Made by a program: the position numbers and the translations under genes
Assembly (NCBI GenBank): GCA_037131245.1
Contig: JBAXRK010000013.1
Location: 1 to 57,998 of the forward strand
Length of the DNA stretch: 57,998 nucleotides
Direction of reading: 5' to 3'
From: Candidatus Omnitrophota bacterium
GTDB lineage: Bacteria > Omnitrophota > Gorgyraeia > Zapsychrales > Fredricksoniimonadaceae
The notes under the pieces: generated by a model
Told to the model about the DNA's origin: nothing
The model's database searches: none
What the model saw: only the letters and a program-made list of their open reading frames with translations
Part shown: piece after piece, positions 10,186 through 30,336 of the stretch
How the letters are laid out: each line of letters starts with the position of its first letter
Position numbering within the stretch: the stretch's first letter is position 1

Positions 10186-11709
10186 TTACCATTCCACAGG
10201 GAAATAGTCCTTCAAGAATTTCCCGCACCAGTGCTCGCCACGGAGGATGCCGTCAAAGAAAGGGTCACAAACCCGCGCCGCGCCGTCTACAATATCCAGC
10301 GGCGGCTGAAAGTCATGCACCTGCTGTTTACGCATGGAAAGCCCGAAAGGATCTTCATCGGTCACCCAGCCGGTATCTACCGCGTTCATAAAGATGCCAT
10401 ATTTCGCCAGATCGCTTGCCGACGTATGCGTTAGCATATTGAGCGCGGCCTTGGCCATATTGGTATGCGGATGCCGGTCGGTTTTGACAAACCGGTGGAA
10501 CTTGCCTTCCATCGCCGAAACATTAACGATATGCTTCTTTCCCGTATTGTCACGCTTCATCATGCCCGACAATTTATTGCACAGCACGAAGGGCGCAATG
10601 GAATTGACCAGCTGCAGCTCGATCATTTCAGACGTCTGGATCTCGCCCAGGCGCAACCGCCAGCTGTTGGTCTCGCGCAGGTCAACCTGCTGCAGGTCGG
10701 CGTCCAGCTTTCCGACAGGAAATACTTTTTCTACCGACAGGTCCTGGTCGTAAACATAAGGTATCTGAGATAATTTCGCTGACGAAGACAAACCAACGCC
10801 GGGCACTTTGGCCGCCCAGGTCACCGGGATATTGGCAGTCTCGCGGCTGGCGCTTCCTGAATTAAGGCCAAGCTGGGCCTTGCAATCCTCAAAAGCACTG
10901 AGCAAGCCCTGTACCTCCTGGGGCAGGTCATGAAAAGGCAGCGTTTCATTGGGGATCATGTGCGCGTAAAAGCCGGTCGGACGCCGCACGGTCTGCGCCG
11001 CGTTATTGACCAGGATATCGAGCCGGTCGTATTTCTGCTCGATGAATTTACAAAAGATCTCCACGCTCGGTGTGTGGCGCAGGTCGAGGCCGTAAACATG
11101 CAACCGGTCGCCCCAATCCTTAAAATCTTTTTCTTTGGAATAACGCATGGCGCTGTCCACGGGAAACCGCGTGGTGGCAATAACCCGGGCCCCGGCGCGC
11201 AGCATCATCAAAGAAGCCTGATACCCGATCTTAAGTCGTGATCCGGTAATAAGCGCGACCTGACCAACCAAAGACGCGGTCTGAAAGCGCTTGGCATAAT
11301 TGAACTCGGCGCATTTCGGGCACATCGCGTCATAGAAAAAATGCAATTTCGAAAATTCCGCCTTGCACACATAACAATTACGCGGACGGATCAACTCATT
11401 CTCCTCAGAAGGCGCTTTCGGCCCTTCGATCTGCGCCGGCGCCACGAAGACCGTCGAGGTCCGGGCACTGCGGATGCCGGTCGCCGCGCGCACCTTACGC
11501 TGATGGGCGTCGATCTTCTTGAGCTTGAGCGTCCGGCGGTCCTGCGCGCGCTTACGGATCTCCTGCTTGTCGGGGCGGGAAATGCGCCCGGCCGCGATCA
11601 TAAGCTCAACGCGCTGGTCTTCGGTCAAATAGGCCAGCTGATCGCTGTTCTTTGAGAGGTCATCGATCATCTTCAGGCAGGCCTGCAGCTCTTCGGGGGA
11701 ATATTTCAT
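10186..11709 (-). CDS. Long SDR-family oxidoreductase with N-terminal extension containing a CxxC...CxxC zinc-ribbon-like motif (507 aa)
   Basis: The Rossmann segment is [14 protein letters not shown] and ILVNNAAQ is also present. The zinc-ribbon-like segment is [22 protein letters not shown] at about aa 110-135. Its ATG overlaps the stop of the upstream MazG-like gene (ATGA). Confidence 0.65.
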
Positions 11710-12071
11710 AACTTATTGTACTTCGTATGCCGGCCCTTACATTTATCGACGGGATATTTCGCGGCGTTCTTGGCGGTCTTGCGTTCAATGGCCTGCGGCA
11801 GATCGATCCCGAGGTCATGGGCCAGCTCAAAAAGGTACCAGGCCACGTCGGCCAACTCATCGCCCAACACTTCCTTATTCTCCTGGCCGTAACGAACAAC
11901 CTCCTCGGGCGACTTCCACTGGAAATGCTCCAGCACTTCAGCCGCTTCCAAAACCAGGGACAAAGCCACGTCCTTATGGTTATGGAACTGCTTCCAGTCG
12001 CGCTCCTCGCGAAACTGCATCATCTTCTGCGTAATATCTTTTATCTCACCCATAGCCGTGAAGTCTACCAT
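11706..12071 (-). CDS. MazG-like nucleotide pyrophosphohydrolase (small all-alpha NTP-PPase)
   Basis: Typical MazG/YpjD-type motifs are present: [33 protein letters not shown] and [16 protein letters not shown]. The ATG at 12071 follows AGAGGGTGG, whereas the track start at 12083 is a TTG. Confidence 0.7.
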
Positions 12072-12098
12072 CCACCCTCTCAAGTGTCCACTTTTTCA

Positions 12099-12126
12099 TT
12101 GCCAAACCTTGATACATGGCTATATT
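12099..12126 (+). promoter_or_regulatory. Sigma70-like promoter TTGCCA-N16-TATATT upstream of korA
   Basis: Read directly: -35 at 12099-12104, -10 at 12121-12126, about 54 nt before the korA ATG. Confidence 0.4.
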
Positions 12127-12179
12127 GAGAGAAGTGCCGAGGACGGCCCTGCTCTTTTAATAGGAACAATGAGGTCCCT

Positions 12180-13988
12180 ATGTCTGTTGAAAAACGCTCC
12201 GTTACACGCTTCGAACTTCTGATGGACGCCGGGTTCGGCGCCCAGAAAGCCGGTGATATCCTGCTGGCGGCCTTTGTGGCCATGGGGGAATACGTCTACG
12301 TTGAACCCATGATCCCGGCCGAGATCTCTCCGCCGCCGCGCACGCCCTTCGCGCTTTCGGGCATCATCATCCGCCTGGCGGATTTCGACGTCACCAATAT
12401 CGGCAACGATACCGATCTTATCCTGGCTTCCCAGGAAGTCGCCCTTGACCGCCGGCTTAACGACAAAGAATATAACAAAAAATGCGTGGTCCTGCTGGAC
12501 GTCGGCGACCGGGAAAAGAACCCCGCTTCCTACGACGCGGTGATCAAACGCTGTACGGACGAAGGCCTCACCGTCACCACCTTCGACCTGGACCAGCCCT
12601 CCAAGGATATCCTGGGCGATATCAGCGGTAAAGGCCGCAACCTCTATTACCTGGGTATGCTCTCCTTCATCTACGGCATGGACGAGGAGATCGTCAAGGT
12701 CGAGATCGAAAAGACCCTGGGGAAAAAGTTCAGCCCCGAGCTCAAAGAGAAGAACATCGCGCTCTACCATAACGGCTATCAGCTGGCCAAGGGCATGGAC
12801 CTCACCCGCTACAAGGTCGAGGCCTCCCCCCGCAAGGGCGAAAAGATCCTGATCGACGGCAATACCTCGCTGAGCATGGGGATCATCGATGCCGGCTTCA
12901 AACTGTTCTCCGGCTACCCCATCACGCCGGCTTCATCGGTCATGCACAGCCTGGCCCGCGAACTGCCCTCTTACGGCGGCTCCGTCCACCAGGCGGAAGA
13001 TGAGATCGCGGCGATCGGAGTGGCCATCGGCGCCTATTTCGGCGGCGTGCCCTCCATCACAGCGACCTCGGGCCCGGGCCTTTCGCTCAAACAGGAATTC
13101 ATCGGCTACGCGCAATCGGCCGAAATACCGCTGGTGGTCCTCGACGTCCAGCGCGGCGGCCCGTCAACGGGCTTGCCCACCAAGACCGAACAAAGCGACC
13201 TGATGCCCGCGATCTTCGGCTCGCACGGCGACCATACCAAGATCGTCATCAGCGTCTCGAACGTCATCGACTGCTTCTACGCACCGCACCTGGCCCGCTA
13301 CCTGACAGAGAAACTCCGCGTGCCGGTGCTCATCATGAGCGATTTCCAGACGGCCAACAGCTACAAGGTCATCACCAAACCCAAGATCGTTAACATGACC
13401 AACGTTGATGAGATCCCGGATTTTGTCCTGGAGCGCTTCCATATCAAACGGCTGCCTGATAATATCGAAATGGTCCGCCTTAACCAGGCCCTGCCCGGCA
13501 CCCCCGGCCAGATGCGCCGGGTCACGGGCTTAAGCACTGACGCCAAAGGGCAGATCACCACGTCTTCCTCCGCCAGCCAGCGCGGGCATCATATCCGCAA
13601 CGAGAAAGTGCATCATGTCCGCCGCGCTTTAACCGCGCCGGAAATGTTCGGCCCTGACACCGGCGATATCCTGGTAGTCGGCTGGGGCTCCACCCGCGGC
13701 GCTTTGGAAGAAGCCATCGGCCTCGCCCAGAAGCAGGGTGTCCGCGCGTCGGGCATGCACCTGCGCGTGGTCTATCCGCTGCCGCTCATGCTCAAAGAGA
13801 TCTTCGCGAAATATAAAAAGATCGTGACCGTGGAAGTGGCTTACGGCGATGCCCTCAAACCCTCGCCGCTGGCCTTGCTCCTGCGCTCGGAGGTGCTGAC
13901 AGAGATCCATCCGCTCATCGCGGAGGCGACCGGCCGGCCTATCCGCCCGAAAGTGATCCTCGAACGCATTAAGGAGGCCTTACAATGA
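12180..13988 (+). CDS. korA: 2-oxoacid:ferredoxin oxidoreductase, alpha subunit with fused gamma-like N-terminal domain
   Basis: An N-terminal POR-gamma-like segment (GFGAQKAGDILLAAF) is followed by the alpha core (GNTSLSMGIIDAGFKLFSGYPITPASS, ATSGPGLSLKQE, VVLDVQRGGPSTGLPTK). The stop overlaps the korB start. Confidence 0.85.
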   Translation: MSVEKRSVTRFELLMDAGFGAQKAGDILLAAFVAMGEYVYVEPMIPAEISPPPRTPFALSGIIIRLADFDVTNIGNDTDLILASQEVALDRRLNDKEYNKKCVVLLDVGDREKNPASYDAVIKRCTDEGLTVTTFDLDQPSKDILGDISGKGRNLYYLGMLSFIYGMDEEIVKVEIEKTLGKKFSPELKEKNIALYHNGYQLAKGMDLTRYKVEASPRKGEKILIDGNTSLSMGIIDAGFKLFSGYPITPASSVMHSLARELPSYGGSVHQAEDEIAAIGVAIGAYFGGVPSITATSGPGLSLKQEFIGYAQSAEIPLVVLDVQRGGPSTGLPTKTEQSDLMPAIFGSHGDHTKIVISVSNVIDCFYAPHLARYLTEKLRVPVLIMSDFQTANSYKVITKPKIVNMTNVDEIPDFVLERFHIKRLPDNIEMVRLNQALPGTPGQMRRVTGLSTDAKGQITTSSSASQRGHHIRNEKVHHVRRALTAPEMFGPDTGDILVVGWGSTRGALEEAIGLAQKQGVRASGMHLRVVYPLPLMLKEIFAKYKKIVTVEVAYGDALKPSPLALLLRSEVLTEIHPLIAEATGRPIRPKVILERIKEALQ

Positions 13989-16964: not shown

Positions 16965-17207
16965 TCACCCGCGGCGGCGTTGAATATAGTCGACCACATC
17001 CCTGACCGTCTTAACAGCCATGATATCACTATCCGGGATCTTAAGATAGAACTTTTCCTCCAAAGCGAAAGCCATCTCAATGGCCGCGAAAGAATCCATG
17101 TTAAGGTCCTCCGCCAGGCGGGCGTCGGGCGTGATCTTCTCTGGCGCGGCATCCAGTTTATCCGCCAGGATCGCTTTCACCTGCTGCTCGATATCTTGCG
17201 CGTTCAT
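16965..17207 (-). CDS. Acyl carrier protein
   Basis: The 80-aa protein has EDLNMDSFAAIEMAFALEEKF (a DSx phosphopantetheine-site pattern). Its ATG overlaps the ketosynthase stop (ATGA). Confidence 0.85.
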   Translation of the reverse strand: MNAQDIEQQVKAILADKLDAAPEKITPDARLAEDLNMDSFAAIEMAFALEEKFYLKIPDSDIMAVKTVRDVVDYIQRRRG

Positions 17208-19232: not shown

Positions 19233-19981
19233 TTGGCCCCCGACTGATACGCGACGCCACCAAGCATAAAACTTTTTCCGTGCACATCCCTGAAACCGGC
19301 GCCGCTCATCATAGCCATGATCTCATTCTCCACTGGAAAATAACGGCTCGACCGGCTGAGATACTCAAAAGAATTAAACTCGTGACGATGAAAGACCGCC
19401 CGGCCCAGAAAAGGCATGAGACGGTCGAAATAAACATGATGCAGCCAGCGCGGCAAACCCGCTTTCGGTTTACCAAGATCAAGTGTCGTAAACACGCCGC
19501 CGGGTTTAAGGACACGGTGCATTTCTTTGATTCCCGCCGGGATATCACCGAGGTTCCGCAAGCCGAACCCCATCGCGATCGCGTCAAACGTATGCTCTTC
19601 AAAAGGCAAAGCCAGCGCGCTGGCCTGATAGAAGCTGATATCGTGAATGTTCGATCGCCGCGCCCGTTCTTTGGCTACCCGCAACATTTCTCCCGACATA
19701 TCCACCGCGTCCAGATGAAGGCCGCGGCATTGCCGGGTCATCTCGATAAAAAGGTCGCCGCTGCCCGTGCAGATATCAAGCACCCGCATGCCCGGTTTCA
19801 GATTCAGGCTGCTCACAGCCGCCTGCTTGTACCGCTGCTGCTGCCCAAGGGAAATGACCACGTTGAGCCGGTCATATTTGGGCGCCAACCCGTCAAAAAA
19901 AGCCCGGTTGGACTCCTCCCAGGAGCCGGCCTTAAAATACCGGTCGAACCCGACCGCTTTTACCGCCGCCGCGTCTTTCAT
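19229..19981 (-). CDS. Class I SAM-dependent methyltransferase, UbiE/MenG-like
   Basis: It has VLDICTGSGDL (motif I) and LKPGGVFTTLD, with UbiE-type length. The ATG at 19981 shares one base with the PKS stop. Confidence 0.8.
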   Translation of the reverse strand: MKDAAAVKAVGFDRYFKAGSWEESNRAFFDGLAPKYDRLNVVISLGQQQRYKQAAVSSLNLKPGMRVLDICTGSGDLFIEMTRQCRGLHLDAVDMSGEMLRVAKERARRSNIHDISFYQASALALPFEEHTFDAIAMGFGLRNLGDIPAGIKEMHRVLKPGGVFTTLDLGKPKAGLPRWLHHVYFDRLMPFLGRAVFHRHEFNSFEYLSRSSRYFPVENEIMAMMSGAGFRDVHGKSFMLGGVAYQSGAK

Positions 19982-21021
19982 CAACTTTTCTCCGTCCAGC
20001 GCAATAAAGCCCCATTAACGCTCGTCCCCGCGCCATAACTGACCATTAAAGCTGGCGTCCCATCAGAGAAAACCTGCGTCTCGGCCAAATGTTTAAGAAT
20101 ATACATCACGCTCGGCGATGACATGTTGCCGTACTCCGCCAGGATATGCCGGCTGACCTTAAGAGCTTCCGGGGCCAGGCCCAGCGTTTCTTCAATCCGA
20201 TCGAGGATGAGCCGTCCGCCCGGATGAAAGACCAATACCTCCGGAAGCCGAGCGATCGTCATCTCTGTCAATAAAGCTTTCACGCCAGCCGACACAAATT
20301 GCGGGACCGCTTTGCCCAGGACATTCTGCAAGCGGGCATTGACCGTGCGAAAGCGCAGCTGGTCTCGGGTCTCGGGAAAAAGCAAACAGCCATGCTGTAT
20401 CATCTGCCAGCCAGGCTTCTCGTCGCAGGTCAGCACGCAAGCCGCCGCGCCATCACCAAAAATAGAATTTGAAAGCAGCAGATCCACCGATTCCGCGTGA
20501 ACGAACGTAGCGGAGCATATCTCCACCGCGATAAAAAGCAGATTACCTTTCTTGGCGGCCAGCAAAAACTGCTCGGCCACCCGCAAGCCGGGCACCGCCG
20601 CGCCGCACCCGTGGCCGACAATATCAAGGATGAAAACGTCTTTCCGGACGCCAAGCGCTTCCCCGACATAAGAAGTAAGGCCGGGGCAAAGATATCCGGT
20701 GCACGTCACGATCACCAACCCGTCGACCTGATCCGGCCGCAAGCCCGCCGCGGCCAGGCTTTTGCGCCCCGCCTCTACCGCCAGCGCGGTGGCCTGTGTT
20801 TCAAAACGGGCGGTCGCCGCGTCGGCATCTTCGGTAAGAATCCGCTCCATGCGGTCGATCGCGAAGGTGCGCGAACGCACGCCGTCATCCGACATGAACC
20901 GTTCGTAATATTTTTTACTCCTGACGGAAAAGTCCTGCTTCATGATCAAATCGATGATCGCGCTCTGGTCCATGCGCAAGGGAGGATTAGCCGTACTGAT
21001 GCTCGTGATCCGGGGGGTCAT
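19981..21021 (-). CDS. Type III polyketide synthase (chalcone/stilbene synthase superfamily)
   Basis: The Cys-His-Asn catalytic set is in the expected order: VGHGCGAAVPG (Cys), VFHPGGRLILD (His) and EYGNMSSPSV (Asn). At 346 aa it matches bacterial RppA/Srs/Bps-type size. Confidence 0.85.
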   Translation of the reverse strand: MTPRITSISTANPPLRMDQSAIIDLIMKQDFSVRSKKYYERFMSDDGVRSRTFAIDRMERILTEDADAATARFETQATALAVEAGRKSLAAAGLRPDQVDGLVIVTCTGYLCPGLTSYVGEALGVRKDVFILDIVGHGCGAAVPGLRVAEQFLLAAKKGNLLFIAVEICSATFVHAESVDLLLSNSIFGDGAAACVLTCDEKPGWQMIQHGCLLFPETRDQLRFRTVNARLQNVLGKAVPQFVSAGVKALLTEMTIARLPEVLVFHPGGRLILDRIEETLGLAPEALKVSRHILAEYGNMSSPSVMYILKHLAETQVFSDGTPALMVSYGAGTSVNGALLRWTEKS

Positions 21022-21614
21022 TGATCGCCCCGCGTGAACACCATCGCGTATTTCACGTTTACCAGGTCCGCCACGCGGATCATCATCAGGACAGTGGGCG
21101 GATGCAGGTCATAATCCTTTAAATGAATATCAAAAGCGCCTTCACACGTGAGCGTACCACCCGCCAGACGGCCGGTGGCTGTAAGCGTCACCGGGTGGGT
21201 GATGTTATGGATCGTCATGGTCCCGGGGATCAGGATCGTCCCCTCCCCTTTTGCGGCCAGCGCCGACAGGTCGGGACTACCGAAAGCAAAATGAATATCC
21301 TTGTATTTCGGCTCATTGAACATGCGGTACATATTAACGTCCCGGCCCTTATTGTCCGTGGTCAGGCCAGCCACCGCCAGGTCCACCGCGCCGGCTGAAG
21401 CCGCCCCGGCTGTAGCCGCGCCGGCTGAAGATGCTCCCCCGGCAAAGGACCCCGACATGGTCTGCGCCTTGCCGTGAACATCATGCAATGTCGTGCGCAC
21501 AAAGAAGGTAAGCGTGCTTTTCTCCGGAGCCAGGCGCCACACGTCAGCCGCCATCGCGCGGGGCGCTATAAGGACCGTCACTACCAATAAGAAAATCTTG
21601 AATATCCTGTTCAT
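21018..21614 (-). CDS. YceI-like (polyisoprenoid/lipid-binding) periplasmic protein
   Basis: From the ATG at 21614 (SD GGAGG) it has the signal peptide MNRIFKIFLLVVTVLIAPRAMA. YceI-type motifs follow: STLTFFVRTTLHDVHG, TTDNKGRDVNM and GTMTIHNITHPVTL. An Ala/Gly/Ser-rich insert is present. Confidence 0.7.
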   Translation of the reverse strand: MNRIFKIFLLVVTVLIAPRAMAADVWRLAPEKSTLTFFVRTTLHDVHGKAQTMSGSFAGGASSAGAATAGAASAGAVDLAVAGLTTDNKGRDVNMYRMFNEPKYKDIHFAFGSPDLSALAAKGEGTILIPGTMTIHNITHPVTLTATGRLAGGTLTCEGAFDIHLKDYDLHPPTVLMMIRVADLVNVKYAMVFTRGDQ

Positions 21615-21637: not shown

Positions 21638-22867
21638 CTAACGCCAGAACGCGCCGCTCTCCATCTCCTTGACCAGGACCTCCTGGTCCTTCAGGATCAA
21701 TTGCCGCGAAGCGTCGCGGACCGTAATGGCTTTTTTCGCGATCCCGTGGCAATACTGGCAATCCCCGCACACACGGTTGCGGCAGCCATTCATGCCGAGG
21801 ATCGGCTCCAGGAACCCGTCAAGAGCCCGATTATCGATCGTGACGGGCGGCTCCACCTCGGGCACTGAAATAAACCCCCGCTTGCGGCTGAGGTTCAGCA
21901 AGCGCCGGATCGCGCCGATCCGCAAAGGTGCCGAATGCCTTAACCAGGTCAGCACGCTCCCTGCCCGGTTCCCCAGCGCATTAAGGGAACGGTCGGGCTT
22001 GACCGTGTGACCGAAATCCTGGATCAAGTCCAGTAAGTTGCCCTCATAATGCCGCCCATGGTACGCCTTGAGCCGGCGCAGCAAAACCTCCGTCGGAAGA
22101 TTGCGGCCGGATAATTTGAAATTATCGTAACCAAGCCTTTCGTAATGGGCCAGGTCTTCCGGTCGTATCCAGTCCGCCATCAAGAAACGCTCCGGCTCCC
22201 GCAATTTCTGCGCGGTACAATGCAGATAACAATAATCCGGCAGGATACCCTGTGTTTTACTGCCGCGCCTTGATCCTGACGCGAGGACGTTCATATGATA
22301 CGGCGATAATGAACAACCATAATCGCAATTGTTATTCACCAGAAGCTGTAGCGGGATCTTGACCGACCGGCGGATATCTTCCAGGATATGAAATTCCCGA
22401 TTGACCAACAGCGAATCGAGGACAACCTCATCGGCCCCCATGTCTTCCCACTGGCGCGCTTTGCGGGCGTCACCGACCTGCGCGAAAACACTGATCTTCA
22501 CCCACGCTCCCGGATAGCGGCTCTTGAGGAACCTGAGCAAATAGGGCGTCGCCACCGTGAACCGCGTGATGCCCATGGCCCATAAACGGTCCACCAACCC
22601 CGCCAAAGCCCTCTGCCCCGACCGCGTGTATTCCATATTGTCGGACGCCGAAGCATTAAGCAGATAATTAAAAGCCATGCCCTGTTGCCGGCACAGGTCC
22701 GCGTGCCGGCGCAGGTCGGCGAACGACAAGGAAGGCAGGAGCTGGGACAAGCGCCCGCCGCCAACCGCGTCAGACTGAAGCTTGCCGTAAACTTCGCTCA
22801 CCCCGTGACCGGCCATACCCTCGATCAGGCAAGGGTCAAAATTTGTTGGAACAGAAAATATCGCCAT
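21638..22867 (-). CDS. U32-like (collagenase/UbiU-UbiV superfamily) TIM-barrel protein with C-terminal Cys cluster
   Basis: The layout resembles U32-family proteins: FSVPTNFD...EVYGKL...GGGR...FNYLLNA...LLVNNNCDYGCSLSPYH...DYCYLHC. The extra C-terminal cluster is CRNRVCGDCQYC. The call is by recollection of the family, not by HMM. Confidence 0.5.
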   Translation of the reverse strand: MAIFSVPTNFDPCLIEGMAGHGVSEVYGKLQSDAVGGGRLSQLLPSLSFADLRRHADLCRQQGMAFNYLLNASASDNMEYTRSGQRALAGLVDRLWAMGITRFTVATPYLLRFLKSRYPGAWVKISVFAQVGDARKARQWEDMGADEVVLDSLLVNREFHILEDIRRSVKIPLQLLVNNNCDYGCSLSPYHMNVLASGSRRGSKTQGILPDYCYLHCTAQKLREPERFLMADWIRPEDLAHYERLGYDNFKLSGRNLPTEVLLRRLKAYHGRHYEGNLLDLIQDFGHTVKPDRSLNALGNRAGSVLTWLRHSAPLRIGAIRRLLNLSRKRGFISVPEVEPPVTIDNRALDGFLEPILGMNGCRNRVCGDCQYCHGIAKKAITVRDASRQLILKDQEVLVKEMESGAFWR

Positions 22868-22889: not shown

Positions 22890-24242
22890 TCAAATATTCA
22901 TCGTCCGGCGCGCCATACCGATCGCCTCCGACCAGGCCTGGTCGGACGTATGCACGGAATCCACAATGTCCTTGATCGCCGCTACGAAGCCGTCGATATG
23001 TTCCGTGGTAGCGACCAGCGGAGGTGAAGCTTTGAGCACCATAAAATCATTGCCGCAGATCTGGGTAATAAAACCCTTGTCACGGAACAAGCGCAAGACC
23101 AGCATCTGCCCGAACATCCCCGGATGAATGGCTTTAAATGTTTCAAAAGCCACCTTAAGCTTCAGCGACCTCGGCGCCCGGAACTTGATCCCCGACATCA
23201 TCCCGATCCCGCGCACTTCCTGGAACATCTCATACCCCGACAGGGCCGCCTGGAGCTTGTCGCGCAATTCCCGGCCCATCGCCGTTCCACGCTCACCGAG
23301 CTTTTCCCCTGCCATCACGTCAAGCGACGCCAGCGCGGCCCGCATGGCAAGAGAATTCTCACTGAATGTCGATGTGTGGATCATCGCGCTCTTGAGGGAC
23401 TTGAAAACAGAGTCGCAAACTTTCTCCGTCATAAGTAGAGCGCCCACCGGCACCAGGCCGCCACTCAGCGCTTTAGCCATCACCACCATGTCTGGCTCAA
23501 CACCATAGTGATGGGCTGCCAGGAACGGGCCCGTGCGGTACATGCCCGTCTGTACTTCATCAAGAACAAGTAATGTTCCGCTGCGGCGGCACAAACGCTC
23601 CGCCTCGCGTAAATAATCGTTCGCCGGCAGGACGATCCCCGCTTCCGACTGGATCGGCTCCACAATGAACGCCGCGAACTTCTTGGTGGCCAGTTTTTTA
23701 TCCAAAGCTGCCAGGTCATTGAACGGGATAGCGGTGGTATCCGGCAGCATGGGACCGAACCCGTCACTCCAGAAAGACCCGCCCATCAGGGAAAGCGCGC
23801 CACAAGTGAGCCCATGAAAAGCTCCGTCGCAGTAGAGCATGCCCGTACGGCCGGTATGCATACGAGAAAATTTAATAGCCGCCTCCACGCCTTCACTGCC
23901 GGAACTACCGAACGCGACACGAGCCAGGCGTCCGCCAGCCAGACGGCACAAGCGCTCCGCCAGCACTCCGGCCAGTTGCGGCACGTGATTCTGCAGCATC
24001 GAAGGGCCATTGCTATCAAGCTCGGCCTTAAGCGCGGCAATGATCGCCGGATGATTATGCCCCATATTGTAAACGCAATAGCCCGATAAGAAATCAAGGA
24101 TCCGCCGGCCGTCCACCGTGGTCAATTCCACCCCGAGGCAGTGGCGGTACGCCACGTTCATCTCCAGCAAGTCGAGCAAACGCACCCATTGCGGATTAAC
24201 ATGATCCGCGTACTGCTGGGCAAATGGCTGTTCACTTTTCAT
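22890..24242 (-). CDS. Class III (ornithine/GABA/putrescine-type) PLP-dependent aminotransferase
   Basis: It has NMGHNHPAIIAAL, GSEGVEAAIKFSR, LVLDEVQTGMYRTG and MAKALSGG (PLP Lys). Confidence 0.85.
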   Translation of the reverse strand: MKSEQPFAQQYADHVNPQWVRLLDLLEMNVAYRHCLGVELTTVDGRRILDFLSGYCVYNMGHNHPAIIAALKAELDSNGPSMLQNHVPQLAGVLAERLCRLAGGRLARVAFGSSGSEGVEAAIKFSRMHTGRTGMLYCDGAFHGLTCGALSLMGGSFWSDGFGPMLPDTTAIPFNDLAALDKKLATKKFAAFIVEPIQSEAGIVLPANDYLREAERLCRRSGTLLVLDEVQTGMYRTGPFLAAHHYGVEPDMVVMAKALSGGLVPVGALLMTEKVCDSVFKSLKSAMIHTSTFSENSLAMRAALASLDVMAGEKLGERGTAMGRELRDKLQAALSGYEMFQEVRGIGMMSGIKFRAPRSLKLKVAFETFKAIHPGMFGQMLVLRLFRDKGFITQICGNDFMVLKASPPLVATTEHIDGFVAAIKDIVDSVHTSDQAWSEAIGMARRTMNI

Positions 24243-24303: not shown

Positions 24304-25284
24304 TTATTTGATCTCGAGAATGACCTTCAGGGATCCCTTGGCCCCAACGACAATATTGAACGCTTCCTGAATATCCTTTAGCGGCAGCGCGTGCGTAATA
24401 AGCGTCCGCACATTAACCTTGCCACTGCTGATGAGCGCCAGCGATTCTGCCAGATCATCCGGCGCCGCCCCGTAAGAAGACGTCACCGTCAGTTCTTTCC
24501 TCCAAAAATCCGGTATCGGCAGCGGTATGTCACGGTTCGGGATCGCGAAAAGCAAGATGGTCCCTTTTTTATCGACACAACGGAACGCTTGTTCGACAGC
24601 GCTAAAAGCACCGGTGCACACAATAACCTTATCCGCGGGGGCATCGATCGGTGCCGAAGCCTGAAGCACTTCATCCGCGCCGGCTTCACGCGCTTTCTGC
24701 AAGCGGTACGCGTCAATATCCGTCGCGATGACTCGGGCCCCCTTCAGCTTGGCCAGCATGATATTCATCAGGCCGGAAACGCCACAACCAAGAATAAGGA
24801 CAGTCTGCCCCGCCCGCACATCGATCAACCGCAAACCCCGCACGCCGCACGCCAGCGGCTCGATCATGGACCCTTCCGCGTAAGACACATGATCCGGCAG
24901 GACATAAACACCGCGCTCAACATTGATCGCCGGAACGCGGATGAATTCGCTGTATCCACCCGGATCATAATTGCCCTGATGCAGTGTATCGCAGGCCGTA
25001 TGATGGCCGGCACGGCAGTACTTGCAATCGTCGCAGGGCACATGATGGCTGACGAATACCCGCTGGCCGGCCTTATACGCCGGTGACTTCGATTCAACAA
25101 TATCGCCGCTGATCTCATGGCCCAGGATGCGGGGGCCTTTCTTCACGCGATACCACTCCATCACGTCCGTCCCGCAAATGCCGCTGGCACGCGTCTTCAC
25201 CAGGATCTCACCGGGGCCGATCACGGGAACAGGCAACTCTTCAAGACGGATATCTTTATTGTTATAGTACCGGGCGGCGATCAT
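24304..25284 (-). CDS. Zn-dependent medium-chain dehydrogenase (threonine/sorbitol dehydrogenase-like)
   Basis: It has ASGICGTDVMEW, GHEISG, the structural-Zn Cys cluster CDDCKYCRAGHHTAC and the Rossmann segment LILGCGVSG. The ATG overlaps the aldolase stop (ATGA). Confidence 0.85.
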   Translation of the reverse strand: MIAARYYNNKDIRLEELPVPVIGPGEILVKTRASGICGTDVMEWYRVKKGPRILGHEISGDIVESKSPAYKAGQRVFVSHHVPCDDCKYCRAGHHTACDTLHQGNYDPGGYSEFIRVPAINVERGVYVLPDHVSYAEGSMIEPLACGVRGLRLIDVRAGQTVLILGCGVSGLMNIMLAKLKGARVIATDIDAYRLQKAREAGADEVLQASAPIDAPADKVIVCTGAFSAVEQAFRCVDKKGTILLFAIPNRDIPLPIPDFWRKELTVTSSYGAAPDDLAESLALISSGKVNVRTLITHALPLKDIQEAFNIVVGAKGSLKVILEIK

Positions 25285-26060
25285 GAGGCTTTCAAGATCT
25301 CCCGGGCCTGCTGCAGCGACACATTGTCATGCACGATCGCCTTGAGAGCGCGTGCCATGGCCACCGGACGGGGGCTCTGCCAGACATTGCGGCCCAGGTT
25401 AAGCCCCACCGCGCCCTTCTGCATGCCGTCATGAACAAATTCCAGGACCCCTTCCTCGGTCTCACACTTGGGGCCGCCAGCCATAATGACCGGCACGGGG
25501 CAACCCTGCACTACCTTATCAAAATCCTTGTCGCACCAGTACGTTTTAACAACCCTCGCGCCAAGCTCAGCCGCGATGCGGCAACACAACCCCAGATAAC
25601 GGGCATCGCGTTTTTCCATCTCGCGCCCCACCGCAGTCACCGCCATCACGGGGATCCCGTAAGGCTCGCACATGTTCACCAGCGTGGCCAGGTTCTTGAG
25701 CGTTTCTTTTTCGTAATCACTGCCAATAAAAACAGAAACGCCGACAGCGGAAACATTAAGCCGAAGGATCTCATCAATAGATGTTGTCACTTCCTCATTG
25801 GCCAGGTCCTTGCCGACCATACTGGTACAGCCCGACACTCGCAAGACGATCGGCTTGCTGCCTACCGGATCGATCACCGAGCGCAACACGCCACGCGTAC
25901 AGAATAAAGCATCCACATAAGGCAATAACGGCTTGATCGTCTCAGCCGGCCGTTCCAGGCCTTTGGTCGGCCCCTGAAAATAACCGTGGTCGATCGGCAT
26001 AAAAAAACATTTTCCGCCCGGCATCAACTGACTTAAGCGATTCTTCATTCCCCAACTCAT
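25281..26060 (-). CDS. DhnA/LsrF/AroA'-type class I aldolase family protein
   Basis: It has FFMPIDHGYFQGP, RVVKTYW (Schiff-base Lys region), PVIMAGGPK and LNLGRNVWQ. The ATG at 26060 follows GGAGG, whereas the track start at 26066 is a TTG. Confidence 0.7.
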   Translation of the reverse strand: MSWGMKNRLSQLMPGGKCFFMPIDHGYFQGPTKGLERPAETIKPLLPYVDALFCTRGVLRSVIDPVGSKPIVLRVSGCTSMVGKDLANEEVTTSIDEILRLNVSAVGVSVFIGSDYEKETLKNLATLVNMCEPYGIPVMAVTAVGREMEKRDARYLGLCCRIAAELGARVVKTYWCDKDFDKVVQGCPVPVIMAGGPKCETEEGVLEFVHDGMQKGAVGLNLGRNVWQSPRPVAMARALKAIVHDNVSLQQAREILKAS

Positions 26061-26146
26061 GCGCAAGCCTCCGTAATATGGTTGAACAATATCATCCTGA
26101 AGATTAAACCAGGATTAAAAGAAGATTAGATTTTATTAACGGCCGC

Positions 26147-26621: not shown

Positions 26622-28064
26622 TTAGGTTTTCCGGATGAACCGCCACCACAACGCGACATACTGCGACAGCTCCCGGCGCCAGGAAACGAACGGATATAGC
26701 CTGAACTTCATATTATAACCGTACCAGCAGTAAAAAACCATTGTATAAAAAGCGCCGAACGGTAAACGGCACAGGAAGCCCACGCCGCCCCGTAAAATAG
26801 GGAACCGGACAACGACACCGAAAAGCTTGTGAAAATTGCTGATCCACCTGACCCTCTCCGGTGAAAAGCCGAAAGCCGTGCTCCGCTTATTAGTCTCAAG
26901 AAGAAGCGTTTCTTTCCCCAGCAAGCCCTGCTCCCGGGCATAAACCTCGATCGCGGTGCCCGGATACGGATAAAGGATCGACGACCAGGCGAAGGCCGGC
27001 TTAAGGCGGATATTAAAATCCAGCGTTTCAAGGTCCATCGCCTCGCTATCGGCGACCGGCAGACCGATCAGGTTTTGGGTAATGATCTTCACCTTGTGCT
27101 TATGCAAGATTGCCACGCCCCGCTCGATCTCGGCGTTGGTCAATTCGCGCTTAAGGACGGCATTCGCCTTCTCTTCATTACCGCATTCAATACCCATCCA
27201 GGCCGAATCCAGGCCCGCGCCCTTTAACGCGGCAATGATCTCCTCCTTGATAAAGTCCGCCCGGAGGTTAACGCTCAGCGGCAAGCCGACCTGCTCTTTA
27301 TACAGCGCCGCAAAACGGAAGAACCAGGGCCCGGGCTTGGCCAGGAAATTGTCATCATCGATCCAGACAACGTTGAGCGGATACTGCCGCTTAACCTCGA
27401 CGATCTCGCGGACAATGCTCTCGGGTGAACGCGCGCGGACCACCGGGCCTTTACCCTGATAAATATCGTTATAGCGGCTGTTAAAACAATAGGTGCATTT
27501 CTGGGGGCAGCCGCGCGCGGCGAAGAACATCTTGCGGCCCTCGTTCCGTAACGCCGGATCGGCCTCATACATGACGGCCCGGTCGGCGAAAGGCAATGTG
27601 TCAAGGTCGCGAATAAGCGGTGCCAGCGGATTCTTGACCACCTCTGCTCCGTGACGACACCAAAAATTAGGGGAATGACGGTAGTCACCGCCCTCGGCGA
27701 CCCGCCGGCAAAATTCGGGGAACGCTTCATCGGCTTCACCCACGCAGATCGCGTCTACGCCCTCTTCCTGGATCATATCCGGGAAGAACGTCGTGTGCGG
27801 GCCGCCAAAAACCGCCAAGAACGAAATTTCCTTCTTCAGCAGCCGGTTAAACGCCAGCATGCGTCCATGCTCGCCGGTCATCACGCTGTAAGCCACGACA
27901 CCCGGGGCAAAAGACCTGGCGAGCGCAACGGTTCCCTGCTCTCCATGCGTATCTAAAAGTACCAGCCGGGTTTCATGCCCGCGCTCTTTAAGCGCCGCGC
28001 TCAAACACATGATCCCCATGCGTTCATGCATGGTCGATTCTTTAACAATAAAAAGGATCTTCAT
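26622..28064 (-). CDS. B12-binding-domain radical SAM enzyme (class B)
   Basis: An N-terminal cobalamin-binding-like Rossmann segment (KILFIV...MGIMCLSAALKERGHE...) is followed by ARGCPQKCTYCFN (CxxxCxxC). Confidence 0.8.
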   Translation of the reverse strand: MKILFIVKESTMHERMGIMCLSAALKERGHETRLVLLDTHGEQGTVALARSFAPGVVAYSVMTGEHGRMLAFNRLLKKEISFLAVFGGPHTTFFPDMIQEEGVDAICVGEADEAFPEFCRRVAEGGDYRHSPNFWCRHGAEVVKNPLAPLIRDLDTLPFADRAVMYEADPALRNEGRKMFFAARGCPQKCTYCFNSRYNDIYQGKGPVVRARSPESIVREIVEVKRQYPLNVVWIDDDNFLAKPGPWFFRFAALYKEQVGLPLSVNLRADFIKEEIIAALKGAGLDSAWMGIECGNEEKANAVLKRELTNAEIERGVAILHKHKVKIITQNLIGLPVADSEAMDLETLDFNIRLKPAFAWSSILYPYPGTAIEVYAREQGLLGKETLLLETNKRSTAFGFSPERVRWISNFHKLFGVVVRFPILRGGVGFLCRLPFGAFYTMVFYCWYGYNMKFRLYPFVSWRRELSQYVALWWRFIRKT

Positions 28065-29722
28065 TATTTTTCCGGCTTCGGCTCCTCGAACACGGTCAGC
28101 GTGAACTCCAGCGGCACCAACCCCATGCTGGCCTGCTCCTGACGGACCGGGCCGGTGCTTAAGCGTGCCGGGTCAAAACCCGTCCCGGCAATAAGATCAC
28201 TGACCGCCTTGGCCCGCGCGGCGGCCAGCGCCTCCAGGGCCGGCTTATCGACCGCGGCACCTTCGATCAGCTGACGCTTGATCTCGGCAACAACCTTGTC
28301 ATCATCGTAAGAGCCCTCTTTAAGCTTATACTTCTTGGTGATATCCCACAACTCCCGGATGCCGACCCGGCGCTGATAAAGCATCTGGTAGATCCAGCTG
28401 TCAGAGCGCGTCGAATTCTTGCGCAGCTCGGCGAAGTCTTTCTCCAGGGTTACCTGGTTGATGGCTTTCCAGTCAAGGTCGGGGTCATACCCGCCGTCGA
28501 CCTCAAGCTTCAATTTCGGATGGTCTTTAAGGCTCTGCAACAAAGACTGGATCTTTTTCTTCTCCGCGTCGGTAATATCCGTCTTCCCCGGCTGGAACCG
28601 GACATAGCCCAGCTCATCGGTGCCCGTGTCCCCGGCCAGGAACGCGAACGGCTTGGTCACCAGTCCCGTGAAGAAATTCGTAACGACCTGGCCGACCAGC
28701 GACCAGTAATGGAATTCCGGCTTGCTCATGTCGCCGGTCACCGGCAGGGAGATCTTGATACGGCCCTGCGGGTCTTCGAGCAGCGCCACCACCAGGCCGA
28801 ACGGCAGATGAAGAGCGTCCTTGCTTGCCACGCTCTGGCCGAAGGCAAACCGCTGAATAAGGATCTTGTGCGCCGCCGTCAGTTTGTTGCCGCTGATGCG
28901 GTAATCGGTCTTGAACTCCAGCACGCCGTCCTTTAGATCCCGGCCGGCATATTTCCCGACATAGGGGCTTAGGATATCGAGCGCCAACCCATCAAGAGAA
29001 AAACTGGTTTCCAGGTCGATGGGCGTTGCGAACGGCTTGATATTGATCTCGGAGCCGATCGTTCCCTTACCTCCCAGTTTTGCCTGGAAAATAATATTGG
29101 CCGCTCCATCAGGTTTGGTGGAAAACCCGGTGACCTTAATAGCGATATCGGTAAGGGCGACAGAAAAATTGGGATGAATGGTACGGTCAAGAAGATCGAC
29201 GCGGCTGTTCGCGAGCGTCAGGCTGTCAATGATGACCAAAGGCAGAGGTTGTGCCGGGGGCGCCGTCTCTTTGGAGGCGGAGCCTTTCGCAACGGTCGGG
29301 GTAGCGGCAGCGGGAACCGCGGCCGGCGCAGGCATGACCGGCGCGGGCGCCAGCTCCATTAAATTGACTTTCCCGCCATCGAGCAGGACCACGTTGACCT
29401 TGAGACCCTCAAGCGCCACCGACTCAATGCGGTATATTTTCTTGAACAGCGCGAGGAAACTCGCGTCAACGCTCAGCCGGTCAAAGCCCGCCATCAACTG
29501 CCCGTCCTTATCAAGGACCTTAAAGCCGCCCAGCGTCAACCGCCATAAAAAGGGATTGAACGACGCCGACGCCAGCTTGACCGGATGCTTCAGGACTTTT
29601 GTCCCCTGGTCTTCGGCAGCCCACTTGATCACCATAGGCAAAACGACGGCCGCGATAAAAAGGTAGAACACAACAATGCCGGCGACGACTTTAAGCGATA
29701 CCAATCCTATCTTTTTTAACAT
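28064..29722 (-). CDS. Membrane-anchored AsmA-like / DUF748-type protein
   Basis: From the ATG at 29722 there is one N-terminal TM (VAGIVVFYLFIAAVVLPMVI). A long beta-rich periplasmic region then resembles AsmA/DUF748 proteins (LSVDASFLALFKKIYRIESVALEGLKVNVVLLDGGKVNL). Confidence 0.55.
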   Translation of the reverse strand: MLKKIGLVSLKVVAGIVVFYLFIAAVVLPMVIKWAAEDQGTKVLKHPVKLASASFNPFLWRLTLGGFKVLDKDGQLMAGFDRLSVDASFLALFKKIYRIESVALEGLKVNVVLLDGGKVNLMELAPAPVMPAPAAVPAAATPTVAKGSASKETAPPAQPLPLVIIDSLTLANSRVDLLDRTIHPNFSVALTDIAIKVTGFSTKPDGAANIIFQAKLGGKGTIGSEINIKPFATPIDLETSFSLDGLALDILSPYVGKYAGRDLKDGVLEFKTDYRISGNKLTAAHKILIQRFAFGQSVASKDALHLPFGLVVALLEDPQGRIKISLPVTGDMSKPEFHYWSLVGQVVTNFFTGLVTKPFAFLAGDTGTDELGYVRFQPGKTDITDAEKKKIQSLLQSLKDHPKLKLEVDGGYDPDLDWKAINQVTLEKDFAELRKNSTRSDSWIYQMLYQRRVGIRELWDITKKYKLKEGSYDDDKVVAEIKRQLIEGAAVDKPALEALAAARAKAVSDLIAGTGFDPARLSTGPVRQEQASMGLVPLEFTLTVFEEPKPEK

Positions 29723-30336
29723 CAGATCCCCTCTCGCTGCGTTCCTTTTGTGCCCGCCAGAACTTTTTCCATCCGCTGGTCCGGGATAAGCCACATCAGC
29801 GCCACCAGTACATAAAGAGTATCCGCGCTCCACTGGTTAACGAACGACAAAACGACCGCTGCCGCGTAGCTGGCCAGGGAGAGCTTCCCCTTCCAATCGC
29901 GGCCCAGGGTCTGCGCCAGAAGGGATCCCTGCCCGTGATCCTCAACGATACATCCCTGCAGGATAAAATACGCCACCGCGGACATCAACAGCACCGCGCC
30001 ATAGATCGCCGTCGGCCAAGCCGCACCGTGATTCTCTCCCAACCAGCCGGTCGCGAACGGAACAAGGGAAAGCCAGAAAAGTAAATGGGCATTCGCCCAC
30101 ATGATCTTGCTGTTGAGGCGCCGAGCGGTATGTAGCAAATGATGATGATTGTTCCAATAGATCGCGATATAAACGAAACTGAGGGCATAACTGAGGAATT
30201 GCTCGGCCAGCGGCCGCAACGACGCCAGGTCGGTCCCGCGCGGGACCTTTAACTCCAGCACCATGATGGTGATAATGATCGCCAGGACCCCGTCGCTGAA
30301 CGATTCAAGGCGGGTTTTGGGAATATGCGCTTCCAT
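29722..30336 (-). CDS. TMEM175-family (DUF1211) potassium channel
   Basis: It has RLESFSDGVLAIIITIMVLEL (the FSDGV signature) and six predicted TM helices. I prefer the ATG at 30336 over the TTG at 30363. Confidence 0.75.
   Translation of the reverse strand: MEAHIPKTRLESFSDGVLAIIITIMVLELKVPRGTDLASLRPLAEQFLSYALSFVYIAIYWNNHHHLLHTARRLNSKIMWANAHLLFWLSLVPFATGWLGENHGAAWPTAIYGAVLLMSAVAYFILQGCIVEDHGQGSLLAQTLGRDWKGKLSLASYAAAVVLSFVNQWSADTLYVLVALMWLIPDQRMEKVLAGTKGTQREGI

Follow-up and report, generated by a model that had tools for sequence, protein, structure and literature searches.

A U32-family protein encoded beside a type III polyketide synthase in an Omnitrophota genome: a candidate O2-independent ring hydroxylase

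Results

Gene organization of the locus

The stretch of DNA analysed here (the window; 57,998 nt) comes from a contig of a Candidatus Omnitrophota bacterium. A gene for a U32-family protein lies on its minus strand among the following genes and features:

16965-17207, minus strand: ACP, part of the segment 16965-19232
17204 to about 18448, minus strand: FabF-type ketosynthase (KS), part of the same segment
18441-19232, minus strand: SDR, part of the same segment
19229-19984, minus strand: UbiE/MenG-family SAM methyltransferase (PF01209, 181.6 bits; TIGR01934, 196 bits against a cut-off of 158)
19981-21021, minus strand: type III polyketide synthase, T3PKS (Pfam Chal_sti_synt_C/N and FAE1_CUT1_RppA)
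21018-21614, minus strand: YceI-like lipid-binding protein (Pfam YceI, 62.7 bits) with an N-terminal signal-peptide-like sequence (…APRAMA/AD)
21638-22867, minus strand: U32-family protein of 409 aa, predicted to be an Fe-S protein (Pfam PF01136; AlphaFold2 model and Foldseek match to 5d88)
21749-21784, minus strand: second four-Cys group of the U32 protein, C362, C367, C370 and C373 (CX4CX2CX2C), a candidate second metal or Fe-S site
22217-22327, minus strand: first four-Cys group of the U32 protein, C181, C185, C213 and C217 (CX3C-X27-CX3C), invariant in 118 homologues
22890-24242, minus strand: class III aminotransferase, directly upstream of the U32 gene
24304-25284, minus strand: Zn-dependent dehydrogenase
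25281-26066, minus strand: LsrF/DhnA-type aldolase
26622-28064, minus strand: B12-binding radical SAM enzyme, probably a C-methylase

The U32 ORF starts at ATG 22867 or TTG 22870, stops at TAG 21640-21638 and encodes 409 or 410 residues. It is separated by 19-22 nt from the stop codon of the aminotransferase gene and by 23 nt from the YceI start (ATG 21614, SD GGAGG); the YceI, T3PKS and UbiE/MenG-type methyltransferase genes then follow with overlapping stop and start codons. No terminator-like or promoter-like minus-strand site was found in either gap flanking the U32 gene. The junctions are thus operon-like, which bears out the first-pass annotation in placing the gene 23 nt upstream of a YceI-T3PKS-methyltransferase block and speaks against its being part of a separate transcript. 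Two metatranscriptome libraries from the source sample yielded contigs of 158 nt inside the U32 gene, of 198 nt spanning the YceI/T3PKS junction and of 157 nt at 29663-29819. Because DNA carry-over cannot be excluded in these libraries, such short contigs are no proof of transcription.

The catalytic triad of the T3PKS is intact (Cys107-His266-Asn299), and the enzyme is 35-38% identical to U32-adjacent T3PKSs of Geomonas and Nitrospirota. Resorcinol-forming (aldol) specificity in T3PKSs is associated with residues such as Trp at ArsB position 281 (PMC9927152). The UbiE-type methyltransferase is the only full-length match among the eight Ubie_methyltran matches in the assembly. A complex prediction for this methyltransferase and the U32 protein scored 0.00, which gives no answer and speaks neither way. 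The SDR, KS and ACP probably provide acyl starters or tailoring, and KS and ACP genes are again found between the U32 and T3PKS genes in four Nitrospirota loci (L030, L036, L039 and L040). The YceI-like protein, whose gene also occurs in seven related loci, is probably a periplasmic carrier of the lipid product.

The U32 protein: family and fold

According to Pfam, the protein matches Peptidase_U32 (PF01136) with 31.2 bits (E 1.7e-7; profile positions 5-191 of 233), above the gathering cut-off of 22.4 bits, and a whole-genome Pfam scan gave the same result for the ORF. The profile match on which the first-pass hypothesis depended is therefore present, and the predicted fold agrees with it. The AlphaFold2 model (pLDDT 87.4, pTM 0.88) had as its best Foldseek match in the PDB the U32 structure 5d88 (E 1.9e-10, TM by target 0.75), which was also retrieved when the family profile was searched against PDB sequences (E 3.2e-13). 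This structure is of Mk0906 from Methanopyrus kandleri, whose function is unknown. Unlike the window protein, Mk0906 has no C-terminal Cys domain, and by sequence the match spans no more than the barrel core, roughly residues 50-176.

In the model, a TIM-barrel U32 core (about residues 1-290) is followed by a C-terminal domain (about residues 290-409). No Pfam domain matched the last 125 residues (285-409), NCBIfam had no model for the protein and no signal peptide was detected. More than 1200 homologues were retrieved. By profile match and predicted fold, the ORF is a member of the U32 superfamily; it falls in a large, unnamed subfamily. A whole-genome scan indicated that it is the sole U32 gene of the assembly, which is 74% complete.

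Two groups of invariant cysteines

The protein contains eight Cys residues, all of which are invariant among 118 homologues with identities of 38-74%. The internal pairs and the C-terminal CX4CX2CX2C motif remarked on in the first-pass annotation are all among them: NNNC181DYGC185, DYC213YLHC217 and C362-x4-C367-x2-C370-x2-C373.

Fe-S-type U32 proteins possess four highly conserved Cys residues, within or adjoining the U32 domain, with the canonical spacing CX6CX15CX3-4C, from which UbiU and UbiV also deviate (10.1101/587956). The first group of the window protein departs from this spacing, being CX3C-X27-CX3C, and begins three residues past the barrel strand that leads into the canonical U32 [4Fe-4S] motif. 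In a MAFFT alignment, C181 aligned with C176 of UbiU, C176 of RlhA, C177 of TrhP and C180 of UbiV, and C213 aligned with C196 of RlhA and C197 of TrhP. The second group aligned with no Cys of these four proteins. Using hhalign, TrhP was the best match among the E. coli U32 proteins (probability 82%, against 21% for UbiU). These alignments cover only the barrel core, ending at the strand before the Cys residues, so the equivalence of the Fe-S ligands is positional and not proven. The refuting condition of missing Fe-S ligands does not hold: four invariant Cys residues stand at the canonical place, with a spacing that is not canonical. We consider both groups to be putative Fe-S or metal sites. 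The binding of [4Fe-4S] clusters is itself inferred; no member of the subfamily has yielded data on its product, activity or Fe-S content, or clean expression data.

Phylogeny, neighbourhoods and fusions of the subfamily

At E ≤ 1e-30, the subfamily comprises 418 clusters at 50% identity and divides into two sister clades; its members come from more than 567 genomes. In a maximum-likelihood tree of 85 family members, the E. coli proteins UbiU, UbiV, RlhA and TrhP formed the outgroup. By this phylogeny the window protein is an orthologue of none of the four and belongs to a separate subfamily.

The window's clade contains 54 loci in addition to the window. Of these 54 loci, 29 have a T3PKS gene within 10 kb, 28 have one within 5 kb and 13 have one within 300 nt; where at least 5 kb was available on both sides, it lay within 5 kb in 15 of 28. 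The T3PKS-linked loci span at least 11 named phyla and usually have a gene for a UbiE-like or class I methyltransferase adjacent. The second commonest neighbour of the subfamily is the B12-binding radical SAM family (16 loci). Of five genomes that carry a member of the clade without a nearby T3PKS, two show no T3PKS at all. The enzyme therefore cannot strictly depend on a T3PKS product.

Gene fusions were also observed. Protein P0114 is a U32 domain fused to a UbiE-type methyltransferase and is encoded directly after a T3PKS. P0157 is a second natural U32-methyltransferase fusion; its locus (L114) has B12-radical SAM enzymes as neighbours and no T3PKS within 6 kb. A dedicated search returned no fused forms of at least 717 aa; the fusions known from other searches are of 628-924 aa. 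Two apparent T3PKS-U32-methyltransferase triple fusions (1190 and 1362 aa) were rejected as alternative-frame artefacts of GC-rich DNA.

The sister clade adjoins chorismate mutase-DAHP synthase genes in Myxococcota and Bacteroidota. One relative, P0155, unites a domain that binds chorismate, a chorismate mutase and a U32 domain (37% identical to the window protein) in a single fusion. Prephenate is the oxygen donor of UbiU/V (PMC10990095), and these neighbours and the P0155 fusion fit the same donor here. The sister clade also occurs beside sterol-type cyclases, which indicates that the family is not limited to aromatic rings.

Flavin monooxygenases and genome context

The rings of phenolic lipids and polyketide quinones are hydroxylated by flavin monooxygenases, and for this reason such compounds are thought to depend on O2. 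No full-length flavin aromatic monooxygenase was found in the window or elsewhere in the assembly (1.69 Mb, 74% complete), in agreement with the initial reading that the locus lacks one. The assembly's only three FAD_binding_3 matches are on other contigs and extend over no more than the first 33-76 profile positions, corresponding to the dinucleotide-binding end.

A flavoenzyme was observed in the corresponding cluster of a sister Omnitrophota genome, G005, whose gene order is YceI, FAD_binding_3 monooxygenase, T3PKS, UbiE, a 193-aa ORF, aminotransferase and SDR. Identities to the window proteins are 56% for the T3PKS, 59% for UbiE, 69% for the aminotransferase and 56% for the SDR. The monooxygenase gene occupies 11085-12329 of the sister locus, L107. 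The U32 orthologue of G005 (71% identical) lies outside this cluster, beside a GDP-mannose dehydratase gene at a contig edge. The G005 monooxygenase has no homologue anywhere in the window's assembly, and a flavoenzyme is present in only 2 of the 29 T3PKS-linked loci. As the genome is only 74% complete, absences from it are weak evidence.

Among 121 genomes of the phylum, three were found to carry the U32 gene, and neither U32 nor T3PKS was found in any of four same-genus genomes. This accessory distribution fits a joint gain of the two genes as one module. The genome encodes a PheA-type chorismate mutase (CM-PDT). An anaerobe-type gene set had been proposed for the organism; the presence of an Ech hydrogenase and the lack of a heme-copper oxidase accord with this, but a cytochrome b and a bd-like protein are also encoded.

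Comparison with characterized systems

T3PKS cassettes with a known oxygen-inserting enzyme include SrsABC of Streptomyces griseus, PkqABC of Mycobacterium smegmatis and Streptomyces sp. MNU77 (PMC9927152), and HidABC together with planctomycetal methyltransferase-FAD oxidoreductase-T3PKS operons, some of which contain YceI-type lipid-binding genes (PMC10896814). These cassettes convert an alkylresorcinol to a methylated alkyl-quinone or a methoxyphenol. The window resembles them in having a triad-bearing T3PKS beside a methyltransferase and, if the proposed role of the U32 protein is correct, a single oxygen-inserting enzyme. In the known cassettes that enzyme is an O2-dependent flavoprotein, whereas the window has no flavin-dependent hydroxylase or oxidoreductase in the operon and the U32 Fe-S protein is proposed in its place. 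The window further differs in that its methyltransferase is of the UbiE/MenG type and in its additional KS/ACP/SDR, aminotransferase and B12-radical SAM enzyme.

UbiU/UbiV (E. coli YhbU/YhbV), which in ubiquinone biosynthesis hydroxylate the ring without O2 and depend on prephenate, share with the window protein the U32 TIM barrel and four conserved Cys residues past the same barrel strand. The proposed setting is also similar: a UbiE-type methyltransferase alongside, a lipid-tailed phenol as the substrate and a U32 protein standing in for flavin monooxygenases without O2. Genomic links to chorismate mutase likewise fit prephenate as the oxygen donor. Nevertheless, the window protein is not an orthologue, as judged from the hhalign and tree results above, and the window has one U32 gene, not a heterodimer of two paralogues. 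UbiU-UbiV carry two clusters on two proteins, whereas the window protein has two four-Cys sites on one chain, the second in an extra C-terminal domain and the first with its divergent spacing. Neither a second U32 gene nor an SCP2-type UbiT gene was found among the scanned cluster genes; a putatively secreted YceI protein is present in place of UbiT. A polyketide phenol is presumed as the substrate instead of a polyprenyl phenol.

RlhA (YdcP) and TrhP (YegQ) are needed for the O2-independent hydroxylation of 23S rRNA C2501 and tRNA U34, respectively. They have the U32 barrel, and the CX3C pair C213/C217 of the window protein is approximately aligned with C192/C196 of RlhA and C193/C197 of TrhP. 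The window protein differs in belonging to another subfamily, in having no Peptidase_U32_C domain, in its accessory distribution and in its lipid-biosynthesis neighbours.

Proposed function and alternatives

The data show the family assignment, the fold, the invariant Cys residues, the synteny, the fused proteins and the presence of a flavoenzyme in the cluster of the sister genome. We are confident, short of certainty, that the U32 protein is linked to the T3PKS pathway. Our preferred reading, held at even odds in the absence of product or activity data, is that it hydroxylates the ring of the T3PKS product without O2 and so is the counterpart, in anaerobes, of SrsC, PkqC or HidB. The first-pass annotation had advanced this hypothesis from gene context. 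It has since gained the profile match, the fold, the Cys residues, operon-like junctions, synteny, fusions, the sister flavoenzyme and the chorismate mutase links; the hydroxylation remains an inference.

In the proposed pathway, the T3PKS, fed by the cluster's KS/ACP/SDR, would form an alkyl-resorcinol-type phenol. The U32 protein would then add a further ring hydroxyl without O2, taking the role that a flavin monooxygenase has in the srsABC, pkqABC and hidABC cassettes. By analogy with UbiU/UbiV, this step may be a two-electron ring oxidation via Fe-S centres, with the hydroxyl derived from prephenate. Ring methylation by the UbiE-type methyltransferase, and perhaps also by the B12-radical SAM enzyme, would yield an alkyl-hydroquinone/quinone bearing methyl or methoxy groups, or else a phenol resembling hierridin. 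The YceI protein and an AsmA-like protein may carry this product into the envelope. The substrate, the hydroxylation, prephenate as the donor and the product are all inferred.

The U32 protein might instead act in the same T3PKS lipid pathway as an Fe-S redox enzyme with a reaction other than ring hydroxylation, for example reductive dehydroxylation, ring reduction, alkyl-chain hydroxylation or desaturation, or the supply of electrons to the B12-radical SAM methylase. Synteny and fusions tie the protein to the pathway without fixing the reaction, B12-radical SAM enzymes are frequent neighbours and surround the P0157 fusion, and nothing equivalent to the second Cys cluster is present in the known U32 hydroxylases. 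We nonetheless judge other chemistry to be unlikely, if a serious contender: the sister cluster holds a flavin monooxygenase that is missing from the window's cluster and assembly, the chorismate mutase links point specifically to oxygen insertion from prephenate, and the three U32 systems with an assigned function that PMC10990095 discusses (UbiU/UbiV, RlhA and TrhP) are all linked to hydroxylation. A role in another pathway, involving the upstream aminotransferase, Zn-dehydrogenase and LsrF-type aldolase or some other lipid, would make the proximity of the T3PKS partly incidental. It is supported by the two genomes of the window's clade that lack a T3PKS, by the position of the G005 orthologue and by a Planctomycetota contig in which a dehydrogenase-aldolase pair (ADH 45% and aldolase 52% identical) lies 5 kb from a U32 homologue. 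This last link is found in that one other contig (read as two copies, L003 and L004) against 29 T3PKS loci, the aminotransferase belongs to the T3PKS cluster in G005, and P0114 carries its methyltransferase fusion directly after a T3PKS; we therefore consider a separate pathway improbable.

Distribution and context led us to reject two further readings. The first, a housekeeping RNA hydroxylase that works without O2 in the manner of TrhP/RlhA and is present here by chance, would agree with the single U32 gene in the assembly and with TrhP as the closest E. coli match by hhalign. It is very hard to reconcile with a gene found in only three of 121 genomes of the phylum and in none of four of the genus, with branching outside the E. 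coli U32 proteins, with the lack of a Peptidase_U32_C or RNA-binding domain and with a conserved lipid-gene neighbourhood. Hardly credible at all is a true U32 collagenase-type peptidase, the reading of the family name and of source annotations such as 'collagenase-like PrtC family protease' or 'U32 family peptidase': the protein has no signal peptide, it has eight invariant Cys residues of the kind seen in metal centres, the genes around it are biosynthetic and the better-studied U32 proteins that PMC10990095 discusses are linked to hydroxylation.

A U32 route to a phenolic-lipid ring hydroxyl without O2 was not found in the literature searched and has no experiment behind it; the same literature offered nothing relevant that connects U32 proteins to a type III PKS, an alkylresorcinol, a hopanoid or an oxidosqualene cyclase. 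If the ring hydroxylase proposal is true, it would show how strict anaerobes make phenolic lipids or polyketide quinones and would add polyketide lipids to ubiquinone and RNA as targets of prephenate-dependent hydroxylation. As a compact system on one chain that may contain two clusters, the protein would also serve as a model for a reaction not yet reconstituted in vitro (PMC10990095). The subfamily is large and is present in cultivable Geomonas, so the idea is directly testable.

More speculatively, and with little confidence, we suggest that the cluster makes an alkyl-(methyl)benzoquinone (polyketide quinone) without O2 as a membrane electron carrier, for example for the cytochrome b and bd-like proteins. 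More broadly, this U32 subfamily, whose members have both Cys clusters on the same chain, might serve generally to insert oxygen into membrane lipids without O2. One clade would then serve phenolic lipids and quinones, and its sister would serve sterol-type cyclases in genomes without a recognisable squalene epoxidase. The tie of the sister clade to these cyclases bears on the standing of sterol-like lipids as reliable oxygen markers.

As regards other quinone-related genes, the assembly, which is 74% complete, yielded neither a UbiA-family prenyltransferase nor MqnA/D. Of 21 genomes searched (the window's and those of 20 relatives), 18 have UbiA, among them three of four of the same genus; its absence here is probably an assembly gap, and we dropped the argument that the organism has no isoprenoid quinone. 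A NuoH-like gene, examined as a possible part of a quinone-dependent complex I, belongs to the Ech-type [NiFe] hydrogenase.

The U32 protein and its cysteine groups

The product of the gene under study matched the Pfam family Peptidase_U32 at 31.2 bits (cut-off, 22.4), but did not match any NCBIfam model.

21638-22867, minus strand: U32 gene, ATG start with a TTG one codon upstream, 409 aa

From 32 homologues, AlphaFold2 produced a confident model (pLDDT 87.4, pTM 0.88). Its best PDB neighbour was the U32 protein Mk0906 (5d88; E 1.9e-10, TM by target 0.75), which was also the sole solid PDB match by sequence profile (E 3e-13). The Pfam match and this structural neighbour confirmed the U32-like identity proposed in the first-pass annotation, and we regard it as virtually certain that the product is an Fe-S-type protein of the U32 superfamily. 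The Cys motifs quoted in that annotation were also found in the protein sequence.

Eight Cys residues are invariant in the homologues (C181, C185, C213 and C217; C362, C367, C370 and C373), as are ∼60 further positions. We compared the protein with UbiU, UbiV, RlhA and TrhP of E. coli. In hhalign, only the barrel core aligned, as far as the strand that immediately precedes the Cys region. C181 lies 3 residues past the last aligned barrel strand, and the first ligand Cys of TrhP 4 residues past. According to MAFFT, C181 falls on UbiU C176, RlhA C176, TrhP C177 and UbiV C180, and C213 on RlhA C196 and TrhP C197. The strand distance and the MAFFT columns indicate that four invariant Cys occupy the canonical U32 place with another spacing, CX3C-X27-CX3C versus the canonical CX6CX15CX3-4C (10.1101/587956). 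Conservation of the candidate Fe-S ligands, a check named in the first-pass annotation, was thus upheld for their place but not for their spacing. By contrast, nothing in the four E. coli proteins corresponds to the C-terminal domain or its CX4CX2CX2C group, and no Pfam family was found for this domain.

The gene cluster and its flavoenzyme-containing relative

The U32 gene had been described as lying 23 nt upstream of a YceI-T3PKS-methyltransferase block, and we measured 23 nt from its stop codon to the YceI ATG, which has a GGAGG Shine-Dalgarno sequence. The stop codon of a class III aminotransferase gene precedes the U32 start by 19-22 nt. On the minus strand, neither gap contains a site resembling a terminator or a promoter; a separate transcript, which would have told against the hypothesis, was therefore not indicated. 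The downstream genes, which overlap at most junctions, encode a T3PKS with an intact C107/H266/N299 triad, a UbiE/MenG-type methyltransferase (TIGR01934, 196 bits versus 158), an SDR, a FabF-type KS and an ACP. In metatranscriptome libraries of the source sample, short contigs were recovered for 158 nt of the U32 gene and across the YceI/T3PKS junction, but they cannot prove transcription.

The closest relative of the protein (71% identity) is encoded at a contig edge in the sister Omnitrophota MAG G005, whose T3PKS cluster lies on a different contig. We report this flavoenzyme-containing cluster as new:

G005 cluster: YceI, FAD_binding_3 monooxygenase (414 aa), T3PKS, UbiE, 193-aa ORF, aminotransferase, SDR

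Identities to the window's proteins are 56% (T3PKS), 59% (UbiE), 69% (aminotransferase) and 56% (SDR). The cluster in the window shares these genes except the flavoenzyme, and carries the U32 gene directly in front of YceI. Consistent with the earlier observation that the locus lacks a flavin monooxygenase, tblastn found no homologue of the G005 flavoenzyme in the window's entire assembly (74% complete), and the three FAD_binding_3 matches in that genome cover only the profile start. The U32 gene and a flavoenzyme occur together in only 2 of the 29 T3PKS-linked loci. Ubiquinone biosynthesis has the same arrangement, in that UbiU/V replace UbiI/H/F when O2 is lacking. The published phenolic-lipid cassettes srsABC, pkqABC, hidABC and the planctomycetal operon each rely on a flavin enzyme (PMC9927152, PMC10896814). 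The combination of U32 with a T3PKS cassette was absent from the literature that could be searched.

Association of the subfamily with T3PKS genes

More than 1200 homologues (∼410 aa, 38-74% identity) were found, and an exhaustive search yielded 418 subfamily clusters at 50% identity (E ≤ 1e-30). A scan of one genome per species yielded at least 567 relatives and 80 loci; the loci were compared with the window's proteins by tblastn; all neighbouring ORFs were also clustered de novo. In an ML tree rooted on the four E. coli U32 proteins, the subfamily falls into two clades. Its recognition as one subfamily with this structure is new.

Of the 54 loci of the window's clade, 29 have a T3PKS gene within 10 kb of the U32 gene, including 28 with one inside 5 kb and 13 with one inside 300 nt; where at least 5 kb was available on both sides, the 5-kb count was 15/28. 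The linked loci represent Thermodesulfobacteriota (including four cultured Geomonas species), Nitrospirota, Nitrospinota, Planctomycetota, Myxococcota, Bdellovibrionota, Acidobacteriota, Fibrobacterota, Binatota, Deferrimicrobiota and Pseudomonadota. The U32 gene is usually flanked by a UbiE-like or other class I methyltransferase gene, with B12-radical SAM, KS/ACP, MMPL and YceI genes as repeated neighbours. The dominant orders are MT-U32-(ACP-KS-B12rSAM)-T3PKS and (YceI)-T3PKS-(MMPL)-U32-UbiE. One relative, P0114 (669 aa), is a natural U32-methyltransferase fusion encoded directly after a T3PKS. Although no subfamily member has been studied, we consider it very likely that the U32 protein is part of a T3PKS-methyltransferase lipid pathway.

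Two observations limit this T3PKS-linked reading. T3PKS is wholly missing from two of five genomes whose window-clade U32 gene has no local T3PKS. Moreover, a Zn-dehydrogenase and LsrF/DhnA-type aldolase pair upstream of U32 in the window (24304-26066) recurs in one Planctomycetota contig (L003:1691-3498; 45% and 52% identity), ∼5 kb from a U32 homologue. That area also encodes a radical SAM/SPASM enzyme, an amine-oxidase-type flavoprotein and a DoxX-like protein.

A second U32-methyltransferase fusion, P0157 (628 aa; L114:6001-7887), is new here. Its flanking genes include five radical SAM genes, four of them B12-binding, and no T3PKS is encoded within 6 kb. The subfamily may have B12-radical SAM enzymes as regular partners. 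Another Omnitrophota genome, G100, has five paralogues, three in tandem (G100:C7:215191-218386, G100:C2:69874-77979).

Prephenate and the sister clade

The oxygen donor of UbiU/V is prephenate, which has been proposed to serve U32 proteins in general (PMC10990095). Sister-clade loci from Myxococcota have a chorismate mutase-DAHP synthase gene as the immediate neighbour of the U32 gene, and those from Bacteroidota show the same pairing with the order reversed. One relative, P0155 (924 aa; L116:3179-5953), is a chorismate mutase fusion new here. It combines an anthranilate/isochorismate synthase-like chorismate-binding domain and chorismate mutase with a U32 domain that shares 37% identity with the window's protein; its gene adjoins a glutamine amidotransferase gene. 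The window's genome encodes a PheA-type chorismate mutase-prephenate dehydratase. The first-pass proposal of an O2-independent counterpart of SrsC remains an inference of activity, without a characterized subfamily member: the chances appear evenly balanced that the protein is an O2-independent, probably prephenate-dependent, ring hydroxylase.

The cyclase-linked and T3PKS-linked clades are sisters sharing all eight Cys, a relationship that is new here. In 13 sister-clade loci, a triterpene cyclase gene lies directly downstream of U32; 12 of these cyclases carry an (I/V)xDCTA or DCTAE motif, of the oxidosqualene (sterol-type) kind and not the DxDDTA of squalene-hopene cyclases.

Cyclase loci: L042, L043, L049, L053, L054, L057, L069, L071, L073, L076, L079, L082 (example ORF, L042:11206-13299)

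The squalene epoxidase family PF08491 had no match in any of five sister-clade cyclase genomes. Neighbours at the cyclase loci include DXP synthase, an FPP-type polyprenyl synthase, a type 2 IDI-like FMN enzyme and chorismate mutase-DAHPS.

Distribution and genome background

Of 121 genomes sampled from the phylum, 3 were found to carry the subfamily, and none of four same-genus genomes was; T3PKS was likewise not found in those four, and was found in 1 of 20 relatives. We regard the cluster as an accessory island rather than a housekeeping locus; this argues against a role in RNA modification, although the assembly contains no other U32 gene.

The 74% completeness of the window's genome limits its reading. 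A lack of isoprenoid quinones in the organism was considered and dropped, as at least one UbiA-family gene is present in 18 of 21 genomes searched (20 relatives and the window's own). The window's assembly yielded no UbiA-family prenyltransferase; this probably reflects an assembly gap, and cautions against reasoning from missing genes in this genome. No heme-copper oxidase was found in it either. Its NuoH-like gene is part of an Ech hydrogenase.

G000:C15:19964-24650 (L106:7964-12650): Ech-type energy-converting [NiFe] hydrogenase, five genes (NuoL-, NuoH-, NuoB-, NuoC- and NuoD/large-subunit-like)
G000:C2:122205-125480 (L108:304-3578): cytochrome b (bc/b6f type, 154 bits), then a bd-like/cytochrome c fusion

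The fusion consists of the N-terminal half of cytochrome bd subunit I and a c-type cytochrome domain. Its adjacency to cytochrome b suggests that a quinol-using chain may exist, the pair being a possible quinol-oxidising module amid an otherwise anaerobic gene set. A HypC-radical SAM fusion is encoded near the Ech hydrogenase genes (L106:5941-7248).
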